From Thermoplasmata archaeon (GTDB lineage: Archaea; Thermoplasmatota; Thermoplasmata; RBG-16-68-12; JAGMCJ01), in NCBI GenBank assembly GCA_046761005.1, contig JBHIFI010000001.1, positions 11,908 to 75,907 of the forward strand: DNA of 64,000 nucleotides. Reading direction: 5' to 3'. The notes under the pieces are model-generated. The model was not told the DNA's origin. It did not search any database and worked only from the letters and a program-made list of their open reading frames with translations. The first letter of the stretch is position 1. The number at the start of each line of letters is the position of its first letter. Both the position numbers and the translations under genes were made by a program. Below, in pieces: positions 7,804 through 64,000 of this stretch.

Positions 7804-8007
7804 ATGTGGACAGATGGTTCAAGGGGGATGAAATTCTGTGGCAACCGTGGCGCGAGGATGGAACTAGGAACGGATTGTCCAAACTGTGAGAAGTTCGTCC
7901 CCGAAGGCTCGAAGTTCTGTCCTGAACGCGGAAGCCCGCTTAAGGAAATGCCAAAGAGTTCAGAAAATGGGCAATCACTCTCACGATCAATCCGCCACGC
8001 TAGCTAA
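7804..8007 (+). CDS. possible small zinc-ribbon protein; may be a fragment (see findings)
   Basis: KFCGNRGARMELGTDCPNCEKFVPEGSKFCPERG resembles zinc-ribbon/DZR repeats; an adjacent overlapping frame also carries a CxxCG-like fragment. Confidence 0.25.
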   Translation: MWTDGSRGMKFCGNRGARMELGTDCPNCEKFVPEGSKFCPERGSPLKEMPKSSENGQSLSRSIRHAS

Positions 8008-8209
8008 AAGTAGAGAATTTTTGGCGGGATCTGGGGAATGCCCTGCAATACCTGAGAGAAGGAAGCCGAGAAGTTGGCTGACTTCGTAGCACTCACAAAC
8101 GAAGCGGACAAACCTCGCATGTCGCGGAGGATACAATACAACATGATGACAAATAGCATGTCAATAGTCTTTCTTCCCTTCTTCAGGGACTCTCGGGAAA
8201 ATCTCATCA

Positions 8210-8917
8210 TCAATCTCTGAGTCTCAGATAGTCCTCTATGATTCTTGCATGGTCGAAAGCCATATGGGAAGCCTGCTCGGGTTCTATCAATTCTATGCTC
8301 TCTGCATCACTTCCCGACTTGAGCTTCCCGCCCGTTTTCTCAAGAAGGAAAACTATGGAAACAACCTGACCTCTTGGGTCTCTGTCGGGGTCAGAGTACA
8401 CTCCAAGGATCCGCTTCACTTTGGTCTTGATACCCGTTTCCTCCTCGAATTCTCTGACTACTGCTTCTTCAACCCTTTCTCCGTATTCCACGAAACCCCC
8501 TGGAAGTGCCAGTCTCCCCCTAAAAGGCGGATACTTGCGTCTCACAGCGAGAAGCTTTCCTCTGTAGATTAGGATGCCATCAACGGCGATTCGCGGATGT
8601 CTCGGCCCGCCCTCGAGAAAGGTTTGAACTGAACTGTTTCCCTTTTCATAAGCGTTCAAAATCTTCTTCCCTATTTCTGAAAGACGAGTGCGGCCCCCTC
8701 GCTTCCCGCCTCTCTTAGAATAAACAACTTCTCCTCCAGCCGCGTGACTTATCTTCTTGAGAACACCCCATGCGTGCCTATAGGACATTCTCATCCTTCT
8801 CGCGGCTTCCGATATTGAACCTGTCTCATCGACGTACTTCAGCAGTCTGGCTCTGCCCTCACCAATGAGAAAAATACCGTCTTTCTCGAGCCAGGTCTTT
8901 GCCCTCATTTTAAGCAT
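8210..8917 (-). CDS. fusion protein: ModE-like N-terminal HTH domain plus NUDIX hydrolase
   Basis: N-terminus WLEKDGIFLIGEGRARLLKYVDETGSISEAARRMRMSYRHAWGVL matches the ModE/LysR-type HTH (HTH_1); C-terminus carries the Nudix box GGFVEYGERVEEAVVREFEEETG. Confidence 0.7.
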   Translation of the reverse strand: MLKMRAKTWLEKDGIFLIGEGRARLLKYVDETGSISEAARRMRMSYRHAWGVLKKISHAAGGEVVYSKRGGKRGGRTRLSEIGKKILNAYEKGNSSVQTFLEGGPRHPRIAVDGILIYRGKLLAVRRKYPPFRGRLALPGGFVEYGERVEEAVVREFEEETGIKTKVKRILGVYSDPDRDPRGQVVSIVFLLEKTGGKLKSGSDAESIELIEPEQASHMAFDHARIIEDYLRLRD

Positions 8918-50791: not shown

Positions 50792-50942
50792 TACTCGTGT
50801 CGCGATTAGGAATCTAGCTGGAAAATGGTCTCCGCGAAACAGTTTTCTTCCTTGATGAAGAGATTCAGAATAGGAAGGAGACAGGATCTGTAATGGCACA
50901 GTTGGCAATCTTCCTATTGGCTTAGCGAAGAGTCTACCCAGG

Positions 50943-51500
50943 ATGCAGTTTTGGAATATATTGAAATATTGTCGAGACCAATATATTACTCAAGGGGGGT
51001 GGCTTGTGCTGGAGGTCGCTACTCGTCTAGATGGAAACATCAGACTTCAAGAAGGCTCCAAGGAATATCTTGTAATCCCAACCGGTACGCAGTATTCTGA
51101 GCTGGCAAGAGTGCTCAAGAAGCTCATTGCTCTCAGTTATGACATCGTCGGTGATTCAGGAGAAATCCTGAGCATTGTGCGACACAGCGTATTTGCGAAC
51201 CGTGTCCATATTCTCAAGCAAGGAGAAGAAACAGTTCTGGAACTGCCCTATTTGAAGGATAGGTCTTTCTATTACAGGGGAAAGAAGTACGAACTAAGGA
51301 TAAGAAAAATGAGAGGTGAAATCTGTATCGAACGAGACGGGCAACCTGTAGCCTGGGGAAAATATTCCCTCTCGAGAGTTCGATTTATGAGATATGAGAG
51401 GGAGATAGAGGACATCATAAAAGAGATCGCCGTCGGTATAGGAATAAACCTTGCGGGTGTTCAGATATTTGTCCTTGGGTTTCTAGCGGGAGCTGCATAG
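50943..51500 (+). CDS. hypothetical protein with a C-terminal hydrophobic helix
   Basis: 185-aa ORF; no recognisable motif. Confidence 0.4.
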   Translation: MQFWNILKYCRDQYITQGGWLVLEVATRLDGNIRLQEGSKEYLVIPTGTQYSELARVLKKLIALSYDIVGDSGEILSIVRHSVFANRVHILKQGEETVLELPYLKDRSFYYRGKKYELRIRKMRGEICIERDGQPVAWGKYSLSRVRFMRYEREIEDIIKEIAVGIGINLAGVQIFVLGFLAGAA

Positions 51501-51694: not shown

Positions 51695-52720
51695 TTATTT
51701 CTGGGGTTTAATGATAACCTTGAGCGAGTCACCAGCCTTCCGAACGAGTTCAAAACCTTTGGCGGTATCTTCAAGGCCGAACCTGTGGGTTATCATCTCT
51801 TGAACGCGAATCTTTCGGGAGGAGATTAGATCGATAGCGTCCCTGATGTCCTCGGGACTGGCTGCGTAGGATGTTGTTATCGTGATGTTCTTGAACCAAA
51901 GCTCGTTGAATGGCATCGAAATCACCGTTTCAGGATCGGTCGGTGCGAAGAAGAGAATGGAACCGCCCAGCTCAACGCAGGACAATGCCCGCTCTATTGC
52001 CTTTTTCGCTCCTGTGGACACAATCACGACATCCGCCAAAAGCCCCTCAAATAGCTCTCTCAACAGATTCGGGACATCCTCATTTGCATGAAATGCGGCA
52101 TCCGCCCCAAACTTGTGGGCCATTGAAAGACGGTATTCGCTTATGTCGGTGCAAGCAACGCTCCGAACTCCCCGAACCTTCGCCAGCTGTAGATGGAGGA
52201 GTCCCGTAAGTCCGCTTCCAATTATGAGAACGTTGCTATCCTTCACCCCGTCGATTTTATTCTGACCTCTGATGACGCATCCCAGAGGTTCTATGAAGGC
52301 ACCCTCCTCGTATGAGATCTCATCAGGGAGCGGAAAGACTCCATGCTTCACATTGCTGGATGGAACCCTGATGTACTCAGAGAACCCGCCAGGGTCGAAG
52401 TTTGTCGTCCTGAGTGTTTCGCACACCGTATGGTGCCCTCTCCGACAGAATCGACATTCCATGCACGGAACATGATGGGAGACGAAGACGCGCTGTCCCG
52501 TCTCATATCCGCTTACTTCGCTACCTACTTGAGCTATATCTCCTGCAATCTCATGCCCAAGGACGCGGGGAGCCTTCTCAATTCGATACCATTCCATGAC
52601 ATCGCTGCCACATATCCCGCTCGCCATGACCTTGACGAGAAGCTCATCCTCTCCGATTGTGGGCTTTGGAATCTCCTCGAGCCTGATGTCCTGATTGCTG
52701 TAGTACATAGCGACTCGCAT
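51695..52720 (-). CDS. zinc-dependent medium-chain alcohol/threonine dehydrogenase family protein
   Basis: GICGSDVMEW...GHEIAGDI catalytic Zn site; structural Zn Cys cluster (CMECRFCRRGHHTVC); GSGLTGL NAD motif. Confidence 0.8.
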   Translation of the reverse strand: MRVAMYYSNQDIRLEEIPKPTIGEDELLVKVMASGICGSDVMEWYRIEKAPRVLGHEIAGDIAQVGSEVSGYETGQRVFVSHHVPCMECRFCRRGHHTVCETLRTTNFDPGGFSEYIRVPSSNVKHGVFPLPDEISYEEGAFIEPLGCVIRGQNKIDGVKDSNVLIIGSGLTGLLHLQLAKVRGVRSVACTDISEYRLSMAHKFGADAAFHANEDVPNLLRELFEGLLADVVIVSTGAKKAIERALSCVELGGSILFFAPTDPETVISMPFNELWFKNITITTSYAASPEDIRDAIDLISSRKIRVQEMITHRFGLEDTAKGFELVRKAGDSLKVIIKPQK

Positions 52721-52773: not shown

Positions 52774-53571
52774 CTAGGCTTCACCGCTCTTTGCGCTATT
52801 GAAGATGTCCATCGCTTCCTTGGGTGTAGCGTTATCGTGGACAATCGCCCGCACAGCCTTTATCATGGGGACGGAGTTCTCATTCTGCCATATGTTCCGA
52901 CCCATATCGACTCCTACCGCGCCCGTCTGAATGGCATTGTGCGTCATCTCGAAGGCATCCATCTCCGTCTCTAATTTCGGACCGCCAGCGATTACAATCG
53001 GAACTGGGCAGCCCTCGACAACCTTATGGAAATCCTCGCAATAGTATGTCTTCACCATGTGAGCTCCGAGTTCTGCCGCTATCCTGGAGGCCAATCCAAG
53101 ATATCGCGCGTCTCTCTTTTTCAGTTCTCTGCCCACTGCAGTGACCGCCAACACAGGTATGCCGTACTCCTCGCCCTGATTGACGAGCTCGGACAGGCTG
53201 AGCAGTGTTTGCCGCTCATGGGGTGTTCCCACGAATATGGAAAGAGCCACAGCAGCTGCGTTCAGGCGAATTGCCTCATGCATAGAAGTGGTAATCCCTT
53301 CGTTTGCAAGGTTTTCCCCGACTATGCTCGTTCCCCCCGACACTCGGAGGACAATTGGATTGTCGATTGTGGCTGCGACGGAAGAACGAAGCACGCCCCT
53401 GGTGAGCATTATGGAGTCTGCGTATGGAATGAGCGGATCCAGTGTCTTCTTCGGTTGTTCCAACTTCGTCATTGGGCCCAAGAAATAGCCATGGTCGATC
53501 GCCAGCATAACGGTGTGCCCAGTTTTCGGCTTAAGTATTCGTGACAAACGATTTTTCATTCCCCAGTCCAT
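52774..53571 (-). CDS. DhnA-type class I aldolase (fructose-bisphosphate aldolase FbaB / ADH synthase AroA' family)
   Basis: 265 aa; TIM-barrel; HMVKTYY Schiff-base Lys region typical of the DhnA family. Confidence 0.7.
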   Translation of the reverse strand: MDWGMKNRLSRILKPKTGHTVMLAIDHGYFLGPMTKLEQPKKTLDPLIPYADSIMLTRGVLRSSVAATIDNPIVLRVSGGTSIVGENLANEGITTSMHEAIRLNAAAVALSIFVGTPHERQTLLSLSELVNQGEEYGIPVLAVTAVGRELKKRDARYLGLASRIAAELGAHMVKTYYCEDFHKVVEGCPVPIVIAGGPKLETEMDAFEMTHNAIQTGAVGVDMGRNIWQNENSVPMIKAVRAIVHDNATPKEAMDIFNSAKSGEA

Positions 53572-53697: not shown

Positions 53698-54399
53698 CTA
53701 TTCCAGAATTCCCGCCACGAGACCTTCGGGAATATGCTTGACCGCTTTTCTCAGCTGATCCGTGTCTAGCTTCCTCGCGTTTTTCCTGAGAAAAGACGCT
53801 ACCGCCTTTGGTTCGCTTTTCCCCAGTTCTCGTAGGACCCAGCCGAGGGACTTCCTCACAAAATATTCATCGTCTTCGAGGAGACTATGAACCATGTCTA
53901 TGACCAACCTCGGATCGGAGCGTCCTTCTCTGTTGGCTGGTATGGTCGATGTCACCGCTCCCCGCCTTCTCCAGAAATTGGGCGATTGAACCCAGCTTGA
54001 CACCCGAGATGTTATATCGTCATCTCTAAACATGAACTCTGAGAGGACGAAGACTGAGATGTCGTCGCAGTTTGCCCAGTTGTCAACATCATCATACCAT
54101 TTGCTTATTAAATCGAACGAACTCCTGTCAAGCCTCCCCCTGAACTTCTTCAATATAGATGCCGCCAGGCTTCTTGCCTCAAGAATGTCTGCATGCCAGA
54201 GCTCGTCAACGACTTGATGTATGTCCTCAAGCTCAGAGTCCCTGTGGGATGCTGCGTATTTCGAGGCCAATGAGTGAATCGTCGGTTTTCTTACGCCGAA
54301 ACTCTCGAGGCGAGTGCCAATATATCTTTCCGCAACCCAGGATGGCTGCTCAACTCTGTTCTTCTTGAGTTCCTCTATGAGACATTGAGTCTCCTTCAC
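53698..54399 (-). CDS. DNA alkylation repair protein (AlkC/AlkD-like HEAT-repeat glycosylase family)
   Basis: 233 aa, all-alpha; DNWANCDDISVFVL and WVLRELGK blocks resemble the DNA_alkylation (PF08713) consensus. Confidence 0.55.
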   Translation of the reverse strand: MKETQCLIEELKKNRVEQPSWVAERYIGTRLESFGVRKPTIHSLASKYAASHRDSELEDIHQVVDELWHADILEARSLAASILKKFRGRLDRSSFDLISKWYDDVDNWANCDDISVFVLSEFMFRDDDITSRVSSWVQSPNFWRRRGAVTSTIPANREGRSDPRLVIDMVHSLLEDDEYFVRKSLGWVLRELGKSEPKAVASFLRKNARKLDTDQLRKAVKHIPEGLVAGILE

Positions 54400-54767: not shown

Positions 54768-55499
54768 CTAGGGTGGAGGCGGAGGATCCTCCTGAGGCTG
54801 AACTTCTGGCGGTCCGGTTTGACTTGGCGGGTGGATGGTTTGATACGCAGGAGCTTGCTCGGCTGGAGGCGCATGAACGGGCTCGATTTCCAAATCCTTT
54901 GGCTTGACTCTAACTTTGATGGTCTCGGGCTTGGGCTTTATCAGATTCCAACCTGCCTTCGTGACATAGCCTCCAACCACGACCATAGCGAAAAATAGCC
55001 CAACAACGAGAACCGCCAAAGCAAGCGGTAGGAGTATCCTTATGAAATCAATATTCGATTCGAACCCACCAAACTCAGGTTGACTCCTCCCGCTCAGTGC
55101 GGTGTTATTATCAACCTCCACAAGGCCAAAGGCTGAGCTACTCTTTCCATTCTCATCTTCCACAGTCAGGTAAACGGTGTAGGCTCGTTCATCAGGGTAT
55201 ACTTTCGTCGGGTTCTGGAGATTGGATTGATTCCCATCCCCAAAGTCCCAATCCCAGAGCACGATATCCGCATCACCTCTCCTTGATGCATCCTCAAAAA
55301 TGACTTCGTAGTTGTCAGTTGTCCAACTAAAGGAAGCGCTCGGTCCCTCCACGACCTCTTCTTCGGGCAATTGATCCTCAAAGAATTTGCCTGGCGAGGA
55401 GGCCAGCCCGAAGGCAAACAAAAGGACGACGATCAATATGATGATACCGAACACCAGTACTACGGTTCCCAGCACAAGTTCGTATCTCTCTCTATCCAT
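54768..55499 (-). CDS. membrane protein with PKD domain and Pro-rich C-terminus
   Basis: N-terminal TM helix, PKD-like segment (WDWDFGDG...YTVYLTVEDENG), second TM helix, PPPPP tail. Confidence 0.55.
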   Translation of the reverse strand: MDRERYELVLGTVVLVFGIIILIVVLLFAFGLASSPGKFFEDQLPEEEVVEGPSASFSWTTDNYEVIFEDASRRGDADIVLWDWDFGDGNQSNLQNPTKVYPDERAYTVYLTVEDENGKSSSAFGLVEVDNNTALSGRSQPEFGGFESNIDFIRILLPLALAVLVVGLFFAMVVVGGYVTKAGWNLIKPKPETIKVRVKPKDLEIEPVHAPPAEQAPAYQTIHPPSQTGPPEVQPQEDPPPPP

Positions 55500-56250: not shown

Positions 56251-57150
56251 CTATCGATTCCAACTGTCCAAACTTGCCTGTTTGCTCCATCCTTCATCGA
56301 AGACAGGCCTCGGGATTCTCTCATCAATGTCATATCTCTTGCACAGATCAGAAGCTCTCTTCATTATCTCGTTTGTATAGTCCCGCCTCGGCTCATAGGA
56401 ATTTCCAGCATATAGGTCTTCATACCTGTCAACCAGCTCGGGAAAGTTCTCTCTCAGGAAATCCATGAGCCAATCTCTCTGCCAGCTCTCCATTGTCATG
56501 GAAGCACATAGGACGAATTTGGCACCGTTCTCCTTTGCGGTTGCTATGGTCTCTTCCATCATCTCGATGCTGTCAGTGATGTATGGAACAATCGGCATGT
56601 AAGAGAGACCAACGAGAAATCCTCGCTTCGCGAGTTCCCTTATCGCCCTCATCCTGCTACGCGGTGAAGGAGCTCTGAACTCAAGAAGCCGAGATAGACC
56701 CTCATCCACTGTTGAGAAGGAGAAAGAGATACAGCACCACGTTTGCTTTCTAATATCTTCCAGAATGTCGAGGTCTTTCATCAGGTATGGCGACCTCTCT
56801 ACTATGTGCACTGGAAAACGGAGATCGCGAACGACCTTCAGCATCTTTCTGGAGAGGCCGAACTTCTTCTCCGCGGGCTGGTAGTCACCCGTCACAATGA
56901 CATTCCTCTCCACCCGCGGGAGTTCCTTACGCAGCAGTCGGTGCGCGTTTATCTTGACCTTTATCCTCTCTGCGAAATCAGTGGGGTCTGGATACTGCAT
57001 GTACTTCTCCGCCCTTGAATAGCAGAAGTGACAGCCATGGAAGCATCCAACATACGGATGGGCTGCATACTTGTTCCAATACCAGCCCTCATCGACTTTC
57101 TTATGAACGATAAGAATCCTCTTCGCCCTGTATACCTCATATTCCACCAT
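56251..57150 (-). CDS. radical SAM protein, SPL/SplB-like (COG1533 'DNA repair photolyase') family, paralog A
   Basis: HPYVGCFHGCHFCYS (CxxxCxxC cluster in the SPL-family context PY-GC-HGC-YCY). Confidence 0.7.
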   Translation of the reverse strand: MVEYEVYRAKRILIVHKKVDEGWYWNKYAAHPYVGCFHGCHFCYSRAEKYMQYPDPTDFAERIKVKINAHRLLRKELPRVERNVIVTGDYQPAEKKFGLSRKMLKVVRDLRFPVHIVERSPYLMKDLDILEDIRKQTWCCISFSFSTVDEGLSRLLEFRAPSPRSRMRAIRELAKRGFLVGLSYMPIVPYITDSIEMMEETIATAKENGAKFVLCASMTMESWQRDWLMDFLRENFPELVDRYEDLYAGNSYEPRRDYTNEIMKRASDLCKRYDIDERIPRPVFDEGWSKQASLDSWNR

Positions 57151-58034
57151 TACTTCTTTCTCCTACGACGCGAACGCTTTTTCTTTCCGAAGAGTTCTTT
57201 TCTTCTGGCTTCAAGGAGGTCATCGTTCTTGCCCGTGTATCCGGCAGAGGTGAGAACCTTGACCTTTGACCTCTTCGCGGACTCGAAAACGTCGGGAATT
57301 CTTTCCACCCAGTTCTTCTCTCTGAGCAAATGGTGATCTATTATGAGCGTGCGCAAGTCCGAATCCTCGATGAGGCGTACAGTATTCTTTCGAGAGAGTT
57401 CCATATTCTTCTTCCCGTAGGTTCCCATCATATAGCTCAGGGGACCGTCCATCATGACCGTCTGAGGATTTTGCTCCATTATGAAGTCGATTTGATTACG
57501 AGCGCACCCGCCAACAATATCCGATGTGTGGACGAAGGCGTAGTTGCCCTCACGGACACAGACCTCAAGGACATAGCCCATTCTCTCTTTTGCACCGTGC
57601 ACCACTGGCTTGGAGAAAATGATCTTCGTTCTTCCGAATTGGAATTCCTCACCATCCGCGATTGTGATGTCCTTGGCATATTTCTGAATCAGCTTGGCGA
57701 ACCTTCTACCCCTCCTTTTCTGATTGGTATTTGTCTTTTTCTCGTAGTCCTTCAGAAGTGCGATTTTCCCTCGAAAGACGCTCGGCGCATCGGGATTGTG
57801 ATGATCATAGTGGTAGTGACTGACAGTGATCACTTTTGCCTTTCTTGCTTTATCCCTGATTCCCCTCCACATCTCCGCCCTTCTCTTCTTCTCCAATGTA
57901 TGAGGAGGTAGACCGAATCTCTTGGGAGCGAGTCGTACATTGGGGTCTACGAGGATCCTGCAGTCTCTTGTTTCGAGATAGGTCGCCATACTCCTCGCAC
58001 CCATGCTGTCAGCTGCCAAAGGCATGATTCTCAT
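57150..58034 (-). CDS. metallo-beta-lactamase-fold protein with polybasic C-terminal tail (UPF0282-like)
   Basis: ILVDPNV then VSHYHYDHH (HxHxDH); C-terminus KKKRSRRRRKK. Confidence 0.6.
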   Translation of the reverse strand: MRIMPLAADSMGARSMATYLETRDCRILVDPNVRLAPKRFGLPPHTLEKKRRAEMWRGIRDKARKAKVITVSHYHYDHHNPDAPSVFRGKIALLKDYEKKTNTNQKRRGRRFAKLIQKYAKDITIADGEEFQFGRTKIIFSKPVVHGAKERMGYVLEVCVREGNYAFVHTSDIVGGCARNQIDFIMEQNPQTVMMDGPLSYMMGTYGKKNMELSRKNTVRLIEDSDLRTLIIDHHLLREKNWVERIPDVFESAKRSKVKVLTSAGYTGKNDDLLEARRKELFGKKKRSRRRRKK

Positions 58035-58792
58035 GGTCGCACGGCCCTCAACCAGACCTGTTCTCCTCTTCTCCTGAAGCCCATCTCCTCAGTGAGTCTT
58101 ATGGAAGGCTCGTTATCTGTGAATATGTGGCAGATTGGCGTTTTGCCCTTCTCGAAGACAGCATTTATCATTGTCGTAGCAATAGACATAGCGAATCCTC
58201 TCTGTCTGAATCCTTCTTTCACATAGAGAAACCCAAGCATGACGACTTCATCTGTCTCGAGATGGGTGGCATCCCATGCGACAAGCTCACCATCAACCCT
58301 TATGCCATAGGAGAGGCCCTTTTCTATCCTTCTGCGAATGTAGTGAGTGGAATCCTCGCCTGGGTTCCAATATCGATTGATTGTATCAGCATCCTCCGGT
58401 CTCAACGCGGAGACCTCATGTCGGACCTCCCCTCTAAGGTCCTTTCTCGCAAGAGTGTAGAGCCAGGAAGGGTTGTCCCAGATCACCCTGAAACCCTCTC
58501 GAATCAGGTCAGCGATGTTTCTGTCGACAGCGTGAAATCTGTATTCCTTCCCGCCTTCAAGATGATCGAGGAGCATGCGGATGGCTTCTTCCTTCTTCCC
58601 GACCATGGATATGAGTGTCGGTTGATGGTAGCTCATTGTCATGAGCGCTCGCGGGTCTTCCATTGCGTCGACGAGAATCTCCTGCTCTCCAGTGGAGGTG
58701 TGGAACACTCGATATATAGGAAGCGCATTCCAGAGCGGATCGGTGTAGAGAAGGCCTCTTGCCTTTATTTTTAACCTCAACCTCTCCGCCAT
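58031..58792 (-). CDS. GNAT acetyltransferase domain protein with an N-terminal uncharacterised domain
   Basis: C-terminal VMLGFLYVKEGFRQRGFAMSIATTMIN resembles the GNAT motif A. Confidence 0.5.
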   Translation of the reverse strand: MAERLRLKIKARGLLYTDPLWNALPIYRVFHTSTGEQEILVDAMEDPRALMTMSYHQPTLISMVGKKEEAIRMLLDHLEGGKEYRFHAVDRNIADLIREGFRVIWDNPSWLYTLARKDLRGEVRHEVSALRPEDADTINRYWNPGEDSTHYIRRRIEKGLSYGIRVDGELVAWDATHLETDEVVMLGFLYVKEGFRQRGFAMSIATTMINAVFEKGKTPICHIFTDNEPSIRLTEEMGFRRRGEQVWLRAVRP

Positions 58793-58805
58793 TCTTCTTC
58801 ACCGA

Positions 58806-59345
58806 TTATTTGAGCCTGAGTTCCACGTAATAGTGACTTAGCAAGCCAGGGAAATAGCTCGCACGGATATGGCCTCGCCTGGCCTCGTCCGGTGCATCGG
58901 AACCCCATGAGGCTATGTAATGTTCACTATAATTTCCATCCCAAACGGGGTCTACTAGATCCCAAATGAGAACCACTTCATTTCCATCCAGTCCAAATAC
59001 GAGAATATTGTCCTCGAGGCAAAGACATCTCACCTCGTAGAGATGTTTCGTCAGTATGTCACCAGGACCGGAAATCTGATTGAGCACAAGCGCCCCAGAA
59101 CTTTCCGTGACCGTCAAAGTTGCGTTGTATTCGGCGGCGTATTCGAACCCTCCCTTTGGGTCGCCCGCGTCATTGATATAGAAGGAACCCTGGAAGGTAT
59201 GGGAGATAGAGCACTCACAAGCTTCCCCACTTGGTGGCTCGAAGAACAACCACACCCAAGCACCAGGGATGAGTATGATGACCGTGATGGCAACGATAAG
59301 ATGGGTCACCCTGATTTTCACGCGCCTCGAAAGGCGCTCAGGCAA
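58806..59345 (-). CDS. membrane-anchored hypothetical protein (N-terminal TM helix, extracytoplasmic Cys-containing domain)
   Basis: hydrophobic segment LIVAITVIILIPGAWVWLFF then a soluble domain; overlaps the upstream gene by about 28 nt. Confidence 0.4.
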   Translation of the reverse strand: MPERLSRRVKIRVTHLIVAITVIILIPGAWVWLFFEPPSGEACECSISHTFQGSFYINDAGDPKGGFEYAAEYNATLTVTESSGALVLNQISGPGDILTKHLYEVRCLCLEDNILVFGLDGNEVVLIWDLVDPVWDGNYSEHYIASWGSDAPDEARRGHIRASYFPGLLSHYYVELRLK

Positions 59346-60118
59346 TTAATCCCTTTCGTTCTGCAAGCTCGAAATATCTGGTTCGCGATTTTCTCGAAGT
59401 AACCACGGTCATTCTTCAGTATGGACCACCAAGTCTCTTTCATGCCGTGTTCTGTTAGAACAGGTTCGAGCTTTTTCCATGTATCTCTCTTTAGATTCAA
59501 TTTGTCGACCAAGACCTCGGAGGCGTTTGCATCCTTGATGCTGCTCAGGAGCCCTTCCAGATTCTCTTCCGTCACCAGTGGCAGGATTGGACCGATGAAG
59601 GCCCAGGTCCTGATTCCCCGTGAAGAAAGCTCCCTCATTGCTGCAAGTCTTTCATGAGGGGACGAAGCTCCTGGTTCGAATACTCTTCTCCATTTCTCAT
59701 TCAGAGTCGTGAGTGTAAATCCGACGTTGATTTCCTCGAACTTGCAGAGCAACTCAATATCTCGAAGGATTAGAGAAGATTTCGTCTGAATGCTCACGGG
59801 GAAGTCGTTCTTCAGTAAAAGCTCGAGAGACATCCTGGTAATCCTGTACCTCCTCTCAATGGGCTGATAACCGTCCGTCACTGTTCCTATCCCCACGACC
59901 CCCTTCTCTTTTTTCTTGAGCTCTCTCGCGAGGAGGACAGGAAGATTTCTCTTAGCATCGACGAAATCGCCCCAAGGCCTCGTCTCTCGCAAGACAGCAC
60001 TCGCATAACAGTACTTGCATCCGTGAGAACATCCTCTATATGGGTTGAGAGCATATCTATATCCCGGGAGACGCGAGTATGACAATGCGGATTTGCAGCT
60101 AACCTCCCTAATCTTCAT
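59318..60118 (-). CDS. radical SAM protein, SPL/SplB-like family, paralog B
   Basis: NPYRGCSHGCKYCYA cluster, the same family signature as 56251..57150. Confidence 0.7.
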   Translation of the reverse strand: MKIREVSCKSALSYSRLPGYRYALNPYRGCSHGCKYCYASAVLRETRPWGDFVDAKRNLPVLLARELKKKEKGVVGIGTVTDGYQPIERRYRITRMSLELLLKNDFPVSIQTKSSLILRDIELLCKFEEINVGFTLTTLNEKWRRVFEPGASSPHERLAAMRELSSRGIRTWAFIGPILPLVTEENLEGLLSSIKDANASEVLVDKLNLKRDTWKKLEPVLTEHGMKETWWSILKNDRGYFEKIANQIFRACRTKGINCLSAFRGA

Positions 60119-60566
60119 GTTCGACCCCGCTCATCTCCTTCTCGACTTTTCGAATCATCTTCAGGGTCCCTTTCGTAACATCGTAATTATCCAATTCCTC
60201 GAAGCCGATCCATCTGGTTTCCGTCACGTCCGAGGACGGCCTCGCCTCTCCTCGGGAATAATCACACAGCCAATATATGATGACGTAGTGGAACCTAATT
60301 TCAGAGCTGGAATCCACCCCTATGTAATCGTAGTATCCCACCAATCTCAGGGGTGTCACCTTTAGATTAGACTCCTCAAATGCCTCCCGAACGACAGCAT
60401 CTTCGACAGTCTCTCCTAGCTCAACCGCACCTCCGGGTACGCTCCATTTCCCCTTCCCAGGCTCGACGCCTCGCTTGACTATGAGAATTTTTCCTCCCTT
60501 TCTTATGATTGCGCCAACGGACAGGATGGGCCTGAGGGGATACTCCCTCGAGCTAGTTCGTGACAA
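60108..60566 (-). CDS. NUDIX hydrolase
   Basis: Nudix box GGAVELGETVEDAVVREAFEESNL. Confidence 0.8.
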   Translation of the reverse strand: MSRTSSREYPLRPILSVGAIIRKGGKILIVKRGVEPGKGKWSVPGGAVELGETVEDAVVREAFEESNLKVTPLRLVGYYDYIGVDSSSEIRFHYVIIYWLCDYSRGEARPSSDVTETRWIGFEELDNYDVTKGTLKMIRKVEKEMSGVEHED

Positions 60567-61830
60567 AATCCTCTAGCCTCCTTTGATAGAGCATTTCCTT
60601 CAGGAGATGACTGTTCCTTATCCATCTCTTGATGGGAATGGCCATTCTCTTTGAGATGTAAAGAAGAGCCCTCTTGAGGGAATCGAAGCTTTCGTAGGGA
60701 TGGCGCAAGGCGTTCCTCACATTCTCCCTAACGTTCCATACACCAACCGGGAGGATATATCCGGGATGGGTTTCCCTCAGTATGAGGGTCCCTGCTTGTC
60801 TTCTTTCCCGAATCAATGCTTCGCTCACCGCCAAGCGAGCAGCGTAGTAACAGCCGCCTATATCTGCATACGTCGTTCGACCCTTATATCCCTCCCAATC
60901 GTTGAGAAGCAATATCCTGCTCCCCTTCCTCGGATTCCAAACCGTCTCGGGATACCACGCCTCAATAAGCTCATATCTCCAACTTGTTGGCATCATCAGA
61001 ATGGCCCATCTATTGTCGAGCCTCGACGACCAATAGACCCGATAGTCATCAATCGTTGAGAAGGTCTTTACAACTTCCCTCAGCTCCTTACCCGTGATAT
61101 CATCCACAGCTGTGATGCTCCATCTTGTTGGGACCATTCTCCTATTCTTCTTCAATCCAAAGGCACCAACGCTGAAAGCCCTCTGGACCTTTGTAATGGG
61201 AATTCCCTGCTGGTATAGCTCAATCACTGCGTCTCTGGCCAAAAGGTCCCAGTCACTGTATGCCCTGTCAATCCTCCTATCTATCTTAAGGTTGTCGACA
61301 TCGAACATTCTCAGCGGGGCGGACGGACCCATGGGCTGGCTTGACTCATCGAGGACCAATCTCGATGACGGTTTCTTGGAGAATTGCGCCTCCACATCTG
61401 CCGAGTACGTGGCCATTGCCAATTCCCGCGTAAGATCGACAATCTTTCCTGGGTTCTCAAGGTCGTGGACAGATGTCCTGTGCATTCCTCTAACGAGCTG
61501 AAATCGGAAGTTAATGATATCATCTATGCTCTTGTCAAGCCATCTCTCTGGAAGGTCCAGGATTTCTGTATTCCCATGAACGGGAGGAACCATCGGGCCA
61601 ACATACACCTTTGGATACCCAAGTCTCCCCACGAAGACACTCGGTGGTGAGGATCCATCCAAATCCAATCTGTCAATGAGAGGAACTACTTTGGATCGGA
61701 AATAGTATTTCACCAGAATGGGGCACCGACTCTTGCCACATAGATTTCTGGAACCTTTGCACAAGAGGCAATGGGAACTCCTTCTGACGCTTTTGGAATC
61801 TTGAAAAATGAGTTCGGAATCAGGAAGCAT
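60553..61830 (-). CDS. nreA: NreA-family archaeal DNA repair protein
   Basis: 425 aa; N-terminal Cys cluster CLLCKGSRNLCGKSRCP; overall Nre N/C-domain architecture. Confidence 0.55.
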   Translation of the reverse strand: MLPDSELIFQDSKSVRRSSHCLLCKGSRNLCGKSRCPILVKYYFRSKVVPLIDRLDLDGSSPPSVFVGRLGYPKVYVGPMVPPVHGNTEILDLPERWLDKSIDDIINFRFQLVRGMHRTSVHDLENPGKIVDLTRELAMATYSADVEAQFSKKPSSRLVLDESSQPMGPSAPLRMFDVDNLKIDRRIDRAYSDWDLLARDAVIELYQQGIPITKVQRAFSVGAFGLKKNRRMVPTRWSITAVDDITGKELREVVKTFSTIDDYRVYWSSRLDNRWAILMMPTSWRYELIEAWYPETVWNPRKGSRILLLNDWEGYKGRTTYADIGGCYYAARLAVSEALIRERRQAGTLILRETHPGYILPVGVWNVRENVRNALRHPYESFDSLKRALLYISKRMAIPIKRWIRNSHLLKEMLYQRRLEDFVTN

Positions 61831-62183
61831 CTCTATCTTCCCATATCCTTCTTGACTTCATAAACATTGGTTGAGGGGGTCTGTGAAACTAATAATGGTT
61901 TGCGACTCGCTATCCCCTCTTCGTGTCGCTCTCCTGAGAGAACGGAGTTCTGTATCGCTGAAAAAAGGAAGCCCGCCAAGATTTCTCAGCGCATCCCACT
62001 AATCCGCTGTTATCCGACGAGCAGTTTGGACAACTTTCCATCTAATAGCTTATCTTCGTTCTGCAGAAATGAAAACTTCCACTTCTCATCCCTGCAAGCT
62101 CGATATATCTCGGAGTTCCCACAATAGAGACCGCAAGGAACAGAGAGCTCGAATCCCGTTTCCTTCGAGAACACCGCCAATAC

Positions 62184-62747
62184 TTATTTCGCGACAAATA
62201 GATGATACTTCTGCTCTGGGTCGGACAGCTCTTGCTCGATCCGCTTCACTATGAGCTTCTCGGGCCGATGAATGTTGGGAACCCTTTCCACAATATCATC
62301 GAAATTCTTGAAGAGTCCCTTCTTTCTCTCCTCCACAACAGCCCACATAGTCTTCTTGCCAAGCCCTGGAAGAAGCTCGAGCATGTGAAATCGCGTTGTT
62401 ATCGCTTGAGCGTGATTGTAAAACTGAATGAACTTGTCTTCCTTATCCTTAACTATCCTCTCGATCATGAAGGGAAGCTCATTCTGCGCGGCATTTGTGA
62501 GCTCATCGTAGCTGACCCTCCTCTTGACGTGAAGAATGGCATCCCTCTTTTCGACTTCTTTTCCGATGTAGACCCTATCCCCGACAGTGAGGACTGCATT
62601 TTCCTTAGGAATCAGCTCAAAGAGCTTGAACTCGTCCTCGCCCAGGGCGTACGCCACAGGCTCCCTCTTGTACCTGACACCCTCATGCCTCCCCTGTGGA
62701 AGATAATCAAGAATGTGCGCGTAGTCCTCCAAGCTCTTCCCTCTCAA
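62184..62747 (-). CDS. COG1491/DUF655-type predicted nucleic-acid-binding protein (HhH-containing) conserved next to rpoF
   Basis: 187 aa; HhH-like LELLPGLGKKTMWAVV; conserved position downstream of rpoF and rpl21e. Confidence 0.5.
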   Translation of the reverse strand: MRGKSLEDYAHILDYLPQGRHEGVRYKREPVAYALGEDEFKLFELIPKENAVLTVGDRVYIGKEVEKRDAILHVKRRVSYDELTNAAQNELPFMIERIVKDKEDKFIQFYNHAQAITTRFHMLELLPGLGKKTMWAVVEERKKGLFKNFDDIVERVPNIHRPEKLIVKRIEQELSDPEQKYHLFVAK

Positions 62748-63061
62748 AGATACTTCTCAACGGTCTTGATTACCTTCTCAATCTCCTCCTTGCTGAGGGT
62801 GAACCTCTCCTTAGCAAAGATTGCCCTGACATCATCTGGACGAGTCGGAAGAAGATCTGCTATCTTGCATGCATGAAATTCGCTGATATGCTCCATCTTG
62901 ACAAGCTCCTTCACGATTTTCCTAACGTTCATGGGACCGAGCCTTGCAAAAGTCTCCGAGTGCTGTAGAGCCAGCGTCTGCTCGGACGTGAGCTCTCTTT
63001 CCTTACCCTCTTTTTCGAGTAGTTTCTTCACTTCCCCAAGGGACAAAAGTTTCTCATCCAT
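62744..63061 (-). CDS. rpoF: DNA-directed RNA polymerase subunit Rpo4/F
   Basis: 105 aa; Rpb4-like helical protein; conserved linkage with L21e and Pus10. Confidence 0.7.
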   Translation of the reverse strand: MDEKLLSLGEVKKLLEKEGKERELTSEQTLALQHSETFARLGPMNVRKIVKELVKMEHISEFHACKIADLLPTRPDDVRAIFAKERFTLSKEEIEKVIKTVEKYL

Positions 63062-63073
63062 CTACAACCGCCC

Positions 63074-63376
63074 CTATTTGGCCTTGCGCAAGTGCTCAGG
63101 GCGGACAATGACCTGTTTGAGCCTCTTTCCGGTCCTGACTTCCAGCAGATACGCTCTTCCTCTTCTCTCCAAAATCCTTCCAGTGAGCCCATGGAAGCGG
63201 GGATGAGGCTGACCCTTGTGAATGCTTGGGTCTATCATGATGTTTGCCATATCCCCCTCTTCATAATTCACGAACCGCCTCGTTATGGGAGATAGTCCCC
63301 TCTCTCTAGCTCGCTTCCGGAGCTTCTTCCTGGTCCTTCTCCTTGGGCCTTTCGAGGTCCTTCCCATTTCACTCAC
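63074..63376 (-). CDS. rpl21e: 50S ribosomal protein L21e
   Basis: GRTSKGPRRRTRKKL...FHGLTGRI...VIVRPEHL pattern of L21e; 100 aa. Confidence 0.85.
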   Translation of the reverse strand: MSEMGRTSKGPRRRTRKKLRKRARERGLSPITRRFVNYEEGDMANIMIDPSIHKGQPHPRFHGLTGRILERRGRAYLLEVRTGKRLKQVIVRPEHLRKAK

Positions 63377-64000
63377 TTTCGTGTATTTGTATCACGTCGA
63401 GCCCATCCACCACAGCGGCTACTCCGAGCCTTTCGCTGAGACTGGGTTTCGTGCGACCCTCGTCTCCAGTTATGAATTCCTTCACGTAGGTTCCCGCCTC
63501 GGCGGTTAGGATTATCTCTGCATTCTTGGGACCAAGCGACTTTGCATCCATATCCAGTATTTTCTTTCGCCTGACGAGGTCTGCCCTTCTGCGAAGCACT
63601 CTGTGGGGTGTTCTCTGAGCGATTTCCATTCCCTTGAATGACCTAACTACTTCATTAAGGTTTTCTTTCTCCACTATGTCCCCGAAGCTAACCTTGAGGC
63701 TGTATGTCTTCGTGGGCCTAGCCTCTTTCATTTGGACCATTTCCCTCCGATCGGAAGACCTGAGACAATCTACATTGACTATTCCGGACTTGTTTATCTC
63801 CTCTTCAATCGCCCTTAGATCGATCGATCTCCGCCTGGGTTCCTTCACCTCTATAACGAAGGGGCGGCCGTCCCCAAGCATCAAGGCGTCCACATCCTCT
63901 CGCCCCATTCCGTGAAAGGAGGCACTCAGTCCTTCAGTCTGCTCTATGAAGGGACCGGCCACGATCTCCTCCACACTCGTTGGGTACATCTTTCCAGTGT
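63369..64000 (-). CDS. pus10: tRNA pseudouridine(54/55) synthase Pus10, C-terminal catalytic part (gene continues beyond the window end)
   Basis: HGMGREDVDALMLGDGRPFVIE catalytic-Asp block of Pus10; ORF open to the window edge. Confidence 0.7.
   Translation of the reverse strand, partial: TGKMYPTSVEEIVAGPFIEQTEGLSASFHGMGREDVDALMLGDGRPFVIEVKEPRRRSIDLRAIEEEINKSGIVNVDCLRSSDRREMVQMKEARPTKTYSLKVSFGDIVEKENLNEVVRSFKGMEIAQRTPHRVLRRRADLVRRKKILDMDAKSLGPKNAEIILTAEAGTYVKEFITGDEGRTKPSLSERLGVAAVVDGLDVIQIHESE

Follow-up and report, generated by a model that had tools for sequence, protein, structure and literature searches.

The closest described relatives of the genes considered here are spore photoproduct lyase (SPL; SplB, PDB 4FHC) and the other radical S-adenosylmethionine (SAM) proteins of the COG1533 'SplB-like' group. 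Non-SPL 'SplB-like' proteins are widespread and have been listed for more than ten years as putative repair enzymes with no known substrate. They are SOS-regulated in bacteria, where COG1533 genes are under LexA control (PMC8565304; Rv2578c in PMC3381160), and Nre-linked in archaea, where the adjacency of nre and SplB-like genes is published and the substrate of the SplB-like proteins is listed as unknown (PMC4929162; PMC7776575). NreA of Haloferax is needed for the repair of mitomycin C damage, in a PCNA-dependent manner and together with UvrABC (PMC4929162; PMC7776575), and what the near-universal Nre proteins of archaea do biochemically is described as open (PMC4929162). The literature that we searched on COG1533 and Rv2578c contained regulatory or annotation mentions only. 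Here we describe two such genes, radical-SAM A and radical-SAM B, in a 64,000-nt stretch of contig JBHIFI010000001.1 from a Thermoplasmata archaeon (hereafter the window, to which coordinates refer), and show, in part by comparison with homologous loci from relatives (L001 etc.), which genes the region contains, how A and B are related, how they fold, which motifs are conserved and which neighbours recur.

Five consecutive minus-strand open reading frames (ORFs) span positions 56251-60118 and encode A, a metallo-β-lactamase (MBL)-fold protein, a GNAT acetyltransferase, a membrane protein and B. The ORF listing and Pfam thus bear out a preliminary description of this DNA, in which two SPL-family radical-SAM genes bracket an MBL, a GNAT and a membrane gene. 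The co-directional run extends past this interval, with a NUDIX and an Nre-family gene upstream that overlap each other and B, and with orf206, genes for a PKD-domain membrane protein and a small Zn-ribbon protein, and an AlkD-like gene following A on the same strand. We consider it probable that the region belongs to a string of DNA-repair genes peculiar to this lineage, in which two older modules have been juxtaposed, rather than to a single pathway. The string, hosted by a Thermoplasmata archaeon related to Methanomassiliicoccales, would read NreA - NUDIX - B - (membrane protein) - GNAT - UPF0282 MBL - A - orf206 ... AlkD-like. Its first module would be the archaeal Nre/NUDIX/SplB-like triad, which includes B, and its second would be A, a member of a radical-SAM subfamily that normally stands beside an AlkD-type glycosylase and would bind DNA by a C-terminal helix-hairpin-helix (HhH) domain. 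A GNAT-MBL pair would have been joined to these two radical-SAM modules.

The paralogy of A and B is far beyond chance. Both exceed the gathering cut-off of PF04055 (Radical_SAM; 45.1 bits for A and 61.3 bits for B against 29.5), they share 31% identity over 208 residues in pairwise alignment (E = 2e-30), and their family profiles align along the whole core (E = 1e-48). The cluster motifs quoted in the preliminary description, HPYVGCFHGCHFCYS in A and NPYRGCSHGCKYCYA in B, are present, and CX3CX2C is intact in both proteins. The family hallmark proposed there holds for these motifs and for the Cys triad, but in the wider A family its 'H-G' is a majority choice and not invariant. Loss of the triad in orthologs, which had been named as grounds for rejection, was not seen: all 56 A-type and all 55 B-type sequences compared retain it. 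In a neighbour-joining (NJ) tree of A-type and B-type sequences, which carries no support values, the two types are reciprocally monophyletic. Ratios of non-synonymous to synonymous substitution rates (dN/dS) against two relatives ranged over 0.05-0.09 for A and over 0.06-0.08 for B; dS itself is close to saturated. Both are functional genes under purifying selection, and the duplication is ancient; since dN/dS is below 0.1 for both, neither copy is a pseudogene. A recent duplication or pseudogene, the other ground for rejection, is ruled out by these ratios and by the 31% identity, which also agrees with the earlier view of A and B as diverged paralogues.

Structural comparison placed both proteins nearest to SPL. 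AlphaFold2 models of A and B reached a predicted local distance difference test score (pLDDT) of 92.2 and 93.5, respectively, and Foldseek searches of the PDB with either model returned SPL entries at ranks 1-6, followed by a clear drop to generic radical-SAM structures. Matches to SPL had a TMq of 0.64-0.66 for A (E = 6e-8) and 0.74 for B (E ~3e-11), at an identity of ~14% in each case. Single-sequence searches of the PDB found nothing for A and only marginal SPL matches for B, and the HMMER alignment to SPL spans just the cluster loop and the FEP...RL motif. Homologs of both are labelled 'DNA repair photolyase' by JGI (COG1533 'SplB-like' group). With SPL they have in common the radical-SAM CX3CX2C, a partial TIM barrel, the cluster-loop motif and 'FEP-x-(A/T)-S/P...RL-x-A'; however, A and B are 70-100 residues shorter, and spore photoproduct is not expected in non-sporulating archaeal hosts (PMC4929162). 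The SPL equivalog model TIGR04070 (cut-off 400) gave 15 bits for B (E = 0.009) and no match for A. A and B therefore have an SPL-like fold and belong to the COG1533 group, but neither is an SPL ortholog; the earlier 'SPL family' label is apt for the best structural match and not for orthology.

Among other described relatives, the NCBIfam models for Rv2578c (NF038135, cut-off 430), PA0069 (NF033668, cut-off 360) and mobile pair protein B (TIGR04470, cut-off 410) gave 167.5, 150.4 and 84.6 bits for A and 131.3, 162.8 and 153.5 bits for B. The best model is thus Rv2578c for A and PA0069 for B, but all scores lie far under the cut-offs, indicating relatives rather than members; A and B differ from these proteins in being separate archaeal subfamilies. 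Assignment to a 'radical SAM mobile pair' is ruled out by the score far under cut-off and by the lack of a partner protein A gene.

B is a member of the published archaeal Nre-linked 'SplB-like' group. NreA and B overlap directly in the Methanomassiliicoccales-type relatives L001 and L003, L055 has NreA-(NUDIX)-B, and the order NreA-NUDIX-B is found in the window, in L010 and L011, in the other Thermoplasmatota L008 and L173, in Heimdallarchaeota (L004) and in Hodarchaeota (L175). An Nre gene accompanies B in 6 of 7 independent contexts, only L177 lacking it. As in the group reported by Giroux and MacNeill (2016, in PMC4929162), B shares an operon with an Nre gene. The window differs from the direct overlap of L001 and L003 in that the NUDIX gene stands between the two and overlaps both, by 14 nt with the Nre gene and by 11 nt with B. 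The published note, in turn, concerns NreB-adjacent genes and makes no mention of NUDIX, a second paralogue or a GNAT/MBL insertion (PMC4929162). The window Nre protein has an N-terminal Cys4 motif and ends in QRRLEDFVTN, which contains the PCNA-interacting-protein (PIP) motif QRRLEDFV (codons 60562-60585). A does not belong to this Nre-linked group, with no Nre neighbour beside an A-type gene in any of 80 metagenome loci.

A represents a subfamily that is separate from B, archaeal as well as bacterial, and linked to AlkD-type genes. Most of its best homologs (101 of 120) are 340-412 residues long and bear a C-terminal HhH extension (PF14716, HHH_8), the profile of which gives a weak match to the DNA polymerase beta 8-kDa domain. 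These HhH-type homologs come from archaea (Theionarchaea, Methanofastidiosia, Syntrophoarchaeum) and bacteria (Anaerolineae, KSB1). We surveyed A-type genes in the 80 metagenome loci, 60 of which had enough upstream sequence. In 26 of these 60, a PF08713 (AlkD-like) gene immediately precedes the A-type gene on the same strand, usually across a gap of <100 nt, and AlkD-like genes form by far the largest neighbour cluster of A-type genes (28 loci). The pair also occurs in the Anaerolineae chromosome L091 and, with the two genes overlapping, in Syntrophoarchaeum L092. Genes for Fen1 and an ATP-dependent DNA ligase lie downstream of A-type genes in L006, L007 and L096, and an ORF that we call Fpg/Nei-like from its N-terminal sequence (MPELPEI...) only is found 280-460 nt downstream of HhH-type homologs in three loci (L104:1539-2402, L112:9147-9953, L119:4944-5726). 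In the window the AlkD-like gene shares the strand of A and follows it at 1.85 kb; in L010 and L011 it does so at ~1.8 kb. An AlkZ-like gene (PF06224, interstrand-crosslink glycosylase family) was also observed at L091:8676-9760, 1.5 kb downstream of the AlkD-like/radical-SAM pair, and a partial AlkZ-like match at the end of L156.

The literature searched on AlkD together with radical SAM yielded nothing relevant. The nearest described parallel to the A subfamily is the Fer4_12/HHH_3 radical-SAM family, which likewise combines a radical-SAM core with a C-terminal HhH and adjoins a DNA-glycosylase-superfamily gene (PMC3765255; PMC8565304; bioRxiv 10.64898/2026.08.19.745780). It is likewise uncharacterised, but its partner belongs to the uracil-DNA glycosylase (UDG) family/DUF4130 rather than to the AlkD-like HEAT-repeat family.

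A itself ends at residue 299 without an HHH_8 domain, although it is nested inside the HhH-tailed group in the NJ tree. Together with its 17 closest orthologs (51-100% identity) it forms a short clade of 296-306 residues, all without the HhH domain. All 18 members carry Qxx[LI][DGN]x[WFY] at their very C-terminus, with at most one residue after it except for a 10-residue extension in one sequence; the residues before the motif are variable. The pattern was found in 0 of 101 HhH-type homologs, 0 of 120 B-type proteins and 0 of 120 MBL proteins. A scan of the 167 stop-to-stop segments of at least 100 residues in the window located it only in NreA, A and one hydrophobic ORF (50874-51500, plus strand); in the latter, with the C-terminus …QIFVLGFLAGAA, the motif falls within a hydrophobic stretch that is probably membrane-embedded, and the match is most likely due to chance. 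The C-terminus of A reads ...KQASLDSWNR (tail peptide …DEGWSKQASLDSWNR), and its last 13 residues are disordered in the AlphaFold2 model. Compared with the PIP definition QXXhXXaa and the PIP peptide of Archaeoglobus fulgidus Fen1, QSTLDSFF (PMC4929162), the tail matches Q, h and the first aromatic position, and the second aromatic is absent. In its disordered, extreme C-terminal position and its closeness to the Fen1 peptide, it resembles the motifs of archaeal PIP proteins (Fen1, NucS, NreA, RNase HII), but it differs in having a single aromatic position. The nesting of the PIP-tailed clade among HhH-bearing sequences in the NJ tree is most simply read as the replacement, in one clade, of the HhH domain by a PIP-like, putative PCNA-docking tail. 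The literature searched described no radical-SAM enzyme with a PIP motif.

The partners and tails described above bear on whether the COG1533 repair label is a historical artefact of annotation. In that case the substrate of both radical-SAM enzymes, or of A together with GNAT and MBL as a minimum, would be RNA (modification or repair of tRNA or rRNA) or a small molecule. The gene string lies directly downstream of Pus10-L21e-Rpo4-DUF655, biochemistry is absent for either subfamily, and a GNAT is commonly combined with an MBL in the processing of small molecules or RNA. Furthermore, many radical-SAM enzymes with HhH or similar modules modify RNA (bioRxiv 10.64898/2026.08.19.745780). However, the recurring partners are DNA-specific: family or BLAST matches confirmed AlkD-family proteins, Fen1, ATP-dependent DNA ligase and NreA, and the Fpg/Nei-like neighbour is named from its sequence only. 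In addition, the tail fused to the HhH-type homologs is similar to the Pol beta 8-kDa domain and the tail that replaces it to a PCNA motif, bacterial family members are under SOS control, and SPL, the nearest fold, works on DNA. We regard an RNA or small-molecule substrate as unlikely.

The MBL-fold protein places in the PRK04286/UPF0282 family, with 281 bits for NCBIfam NF003287 (PRK04286 'hypothetical protein'), narrowly below the cut-off of 286, and 24 bits for the Pfam MBL-fold model (Lactamase_B_2), just under the cut-off of 27. The intact HxHxDH site reported in the preliminary description is there as HYHYDHH, and the metal-site residues H73-Y-H75-Y-D77-H78, H146, D172, D196 and H234/H235 do not vary among 12 diverse homologs. 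The family is pan-archaeal and of housekeeping type, retains the full metal-binding set at 42-49% identity across phyla, and has >511 matches across archaeal phyla in one-genome-per-species archaeal data. Neither single-sequence nor profile searches of the PDB returned a solved relative, and the literature searched on UPF0282 contained nothing relevant.

Neighbourhoods of the MBL gene were counted in the best 80 loci, at species level. NucS, PolB, DNA ligase, NreA or a radical-SAM gene lies within 500 nt in 22 of them, representing at least four lineages. NucS is directly upstream in 12 Bathyarchaeia loci, a family-B DNA polymerase adjoins in two DPANN loci (with two more within 2 kb), and an ATP-dependent DNA ligase in three (two Methanomethylicia, one Nanoarchaeia). 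NreA is directly downstream, at a distance of ~300 nt, in two other Thermoplasmatota lineages that have no radical-SAM gene (L015:9141-10349, L052:9165-10373); the association of MBL with Nre therefore predates that with radical-SAM genes or is the more general of the two. Radical-SAM genes flank the MBL gene in only 3 of the 80 loci (L010, L011, L055), all from the window's own clade, a count on which we reject the MBL as a dedicated radical-SAM partner. The earlier suggestion that it acts on the product of the radical reaction finds no support here, but a role as a nucleic-acid nuclease or hydrolase is plausible from its own neighbours elsewhere (NucS, PolB, ligase, NreA).

Several details of these loci are recorded here for completeness. 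The Bathyarchaeia MBL genes start 2-27 nt downstream of nucS (L020, L031, L034, L035, L042, L046, L047, L049, L059, L061, L072, L077), mostly at about 8001-8880, and an inorganic pyrophosphatase gene follows; the mismatch endonuclease NucS was confirmed by Pfam NucS_N/NucS_C at L047:6881-7681. The DPANN PolB genes are in L014:8923-11415, L044:4780-7254, L012 and L048, and the ligase genes in L067:1883-3550, L079:1782-3452 and L012:8924-10639. In Archaeoglobi a PHP-domain gene divergently adjoins the MBL gene (L029, L084-L086).

The remaining two genes of the interval differ in their conservation. GNAT is assigned by PF08445 (53.9 bits, cut-off 22.1) and PF00583 (36.5 bits, cut-off 20.7) and stands directly before MBL in the Methanomassiliicoccales locus L039, which has no radical-SAM genes. 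The membrane protein has no Pfam or NCBIfam match and a dN/dS of 0.17-0.2; homologs occur only in L010 (64%) and L011 (52%) and are absent from the relatives at 57-59% identity (L001, L003, L055). It is a lineage-restricted insertion between B and GNAT, and the MBL-GNAT-membrane trio of the preliminary description is not a conserved unit.

That GNAT-MBL occurs without radical-SAM genes in L039, and that MBL is universal and A patchy, would fit a synteny accident in which NreA-NUDIX-B alone works as a unit, with GNAT-MBL a housekeeping pair that has no relation to it and A simply placed downstream. Archaeal operons often mix functions. However, the GNAT/MBL overlap (4 nt) and the MBL stop/A start overlap (1 nt) are kept in relatives at 51-59% identity, and these retained start/stop codon overlaps argue for co-translation of GNAT, MBL and A. 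Independently, MBL also neighbours NreA (L015, L052) and, in other phyla, NucS, PolB or ligase, so that its presence in a repair string is not random. We judge such an accident unlikely.

At the other extreme, the co-directional genes with overlapping or nearly abutting junctions (28 nt of overlap between B and the membrane gene), and the order B-GNAT-MBL-A kept in L001, L003 and L055 at only 51-59% identity, could indicate one dedicated pathway, with A and B acting as a heteromer or sequentially on one substrate and MBL and GNAT processing or modifying the product. However, outside one clade the parts are fully separate. B occurs with NreA and NUDIX, and without A, MBL and GNAT, in Asgard and other Thermoplasmatota loci. 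None of the 80 metagenome loci has B, Nre, MBL or GNAT beside its A-type gene, A-type genes without B are also found in Chloroflexi, and L090 has its A-type gene without B or MBL. The few radical-SAM neighbours of MBL and the ancient, reciprocally monophyletic subfamilies of A and B point in the same direction. A single pathway seems unlikely. Of the two options raised in the preliminary description, an obligate heteromeric pair is improbable, and distinct substrates fit the reciprocal monophyly and the different conserved gene contexts.

For the two-module repair string that we favour, we infer a DNA substrate, PCNA binding and chemistry by analogy and from sequence. By analogy with SPL, CX3CX2C of each enzyme would bind a [4Fe-4S] cluster, SAM would be cleaved reductively, and the resulting 5'-deoxyadenosyl radical would take a hydrogen from a damaged base or crosslink, leading to oxygen-independent reversal or processing. 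Recruitment could proceed through PCNA, directly for A, whose PIP-like tail would bring it to DNA via the clamp, and possibly via Nre for B. The two enzymes would act on different lesions: alkylation or bulky-adduct-type damage for A, as suggested by its AlkD, Fpg, Fen1 and ligase neighbours, and adducts or crosslinks handled with Nre for B. The MBL would most likely be a nucleic-acid hydrolase of general archaeal DNA metabolism, co-opted into the string.

Several points weigh against this proposal. All conclusions rest on comparative genomics, and the functional evidence for both subfamilies is guilt by association throughout. The string adjoins a transcription/translation cluster (Pus10, L21e, Rpo4, DUF655), which is compatible with an RNA substrate. 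In the window the AlkD-like gene does not adjoin A, three genes lying between. The A-MBL-GNAT-B juxtaposition is limited to a single clade (A at 57% identity or more), and the most divergent PIP-tailed A (L090) stands alone. The neighbour counts come from metagenome contigs and are uncorrected for phylogenetic relatedness, and the NJ tree is without support values. The tail of A, Q-x-x-L-D-S-W-x, carries one aromatic residue where a canonical PIP has two, and PCNA binding is a prediction.

The features of the window are listed in Table 1. No T-run occurs in the 30-nt gap between A and orf206, which are on this evidence probably co-transcribed; orf206 directly follows A only in L010 and L011, the closest relatives (dN/dS 0.07-0.10). 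The PKD-domain and Zn-ribbon genes separate A and orf206 from the AlkD-like gene. Upstream, a Pus10 - L21e - Rpo4/RpoF - DUF655 block lies directly before nreA across Thermoplasmatota (L001, L003, L008, L173). Some relatives have a divergent HTH_Crp_2-like gene between DUF655 and nreA; the window has instead a 353-nt spacer, which holds a T6 run and a TATA-like box.

Table 1 Features of the gene string and its flanks in the 64,000-nt window.
Feature	Position	Strand	Remarks
Pus10 - L21e - Rpo4/RpoF - DUF655 block	62184-63989	-	Directly upstream of nreA
T6 run	61961-61966		Possible terminator of upstream DUF655 unit; by-eye reading only
Possible TATA box TTTATGAA	61857..61864	-	27-34 nt upstream of NreA start; read by eye
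NreA-like Nre-family protein	60553..61830	-	First gene of string; Pfam Nre_N 333 bits, Nre_C 141 bits
MutT-like NUDIX hydrolase	60108..60566	-	PF00293 75.7 bits; middle of NreA-NUDIX-B triad
Radical-SAM B, 266 aa	59318..60118	-	Contains ...ALNPYRGCSHGCKYCYA...; Nre-linked archaeal SplB-like subfamily
B Cys triad C30/C34/C37	60008-60031	-	Codons
Membrane protein, 179 aa	58806..59345	-	One N-terminal transmembrane helix, hydrophobic stretch VTHLIVAITVIILIPGAWVWLFF
GNAT acetyltransferase, 253 aa	58031..58792	-	C-terminal FR47-like domain and 140-aa N-terminal region without family assignment
MBL-fold protein, 294 aa	57150..58034	-	PRK04286/UPF0282 family
MBL motif HYHYDHH	57798-57818	-	Codons
Radical-SAM A, 299 aa	56251..57150	-	Contains ...AAHPYVGCFHGCHFCYS...; AlkD-linked subfamily
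A Cys triad C36/C40/C43	57022-57045	-	Codons
A tail Q291-A-S-L-D-S-W-N298, PIP-box-like	56257..56280	-	Codons
orf206, 206 aa	55600..56220	-	No Pfam/NCBIfam family match; 30 nt downstream of A
PKD-domain membrane protein	54768-55499	-	Hydrophobic segments at N- and C-termini, proline-rich tail
Zn-ribbon protein, 79 aa	54449-54688	-	
AlkD-like DNA-alkylation-repair protein (HEAT-like repeat family)	53698..54399	-	PF08713 155 bits
DhnA-type aldolase-like ORF	52774-53571	-	Beyond AlkD-like gene; by sequence look only
Zinc alcohol-dehydrogenase-like ORF	51695-52720	-	Downstream of AlkD-like gene; by sequence look only

SplB-like radical-SAM genes next to nre were already known. Apparently new, as not found in the literature searched, are the second subfamily with its strong coupling to AlkD-type genes, the putative HhH-to-PIP tail exchange, and the DNA-metabolism neighbourhood of the UPF0282 MBL. 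Taken jointly, these features allow a more far-reaching proposal, which we advance tentatively and hold to be doubtful as a whole: A may be the first clamp-tethered radical-SAM enzyme, a PCNA-docked, oxygen-independent processor of DNA lesions in anaerobic archaea, derived from a radical-SAM/HhH family that is widespread in bacteria and archaea and works with AlkD-type glycosylases on alkylated or bulky adducts; the UPF0282 MBL may be an unrecognised replication/repair nuclease; and with Nre, NUDIX and B these would make up a radical-based archaeal repair branch. Should the predictions fail, the locus would be an operon of conserved hypothetical genes.

For a protein group that has long been without a substrate, the locus and its relatives yield the testable statement that at least two functionally separate archaeal subfamilies exist. 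The coupling to AlkD-type genes in bacteria and archaea narrows the lesion class for the A subfamily, and the apparent exchange of an HhH domain for a PCNA-type tail in one clade would provide a testable handle on the enzyme family. The company of NucS, PolB, DNA ligase and NreA, finally, nominates the UPF0282 MBL as a candidate nuclease of archaeal DNA metabolism.

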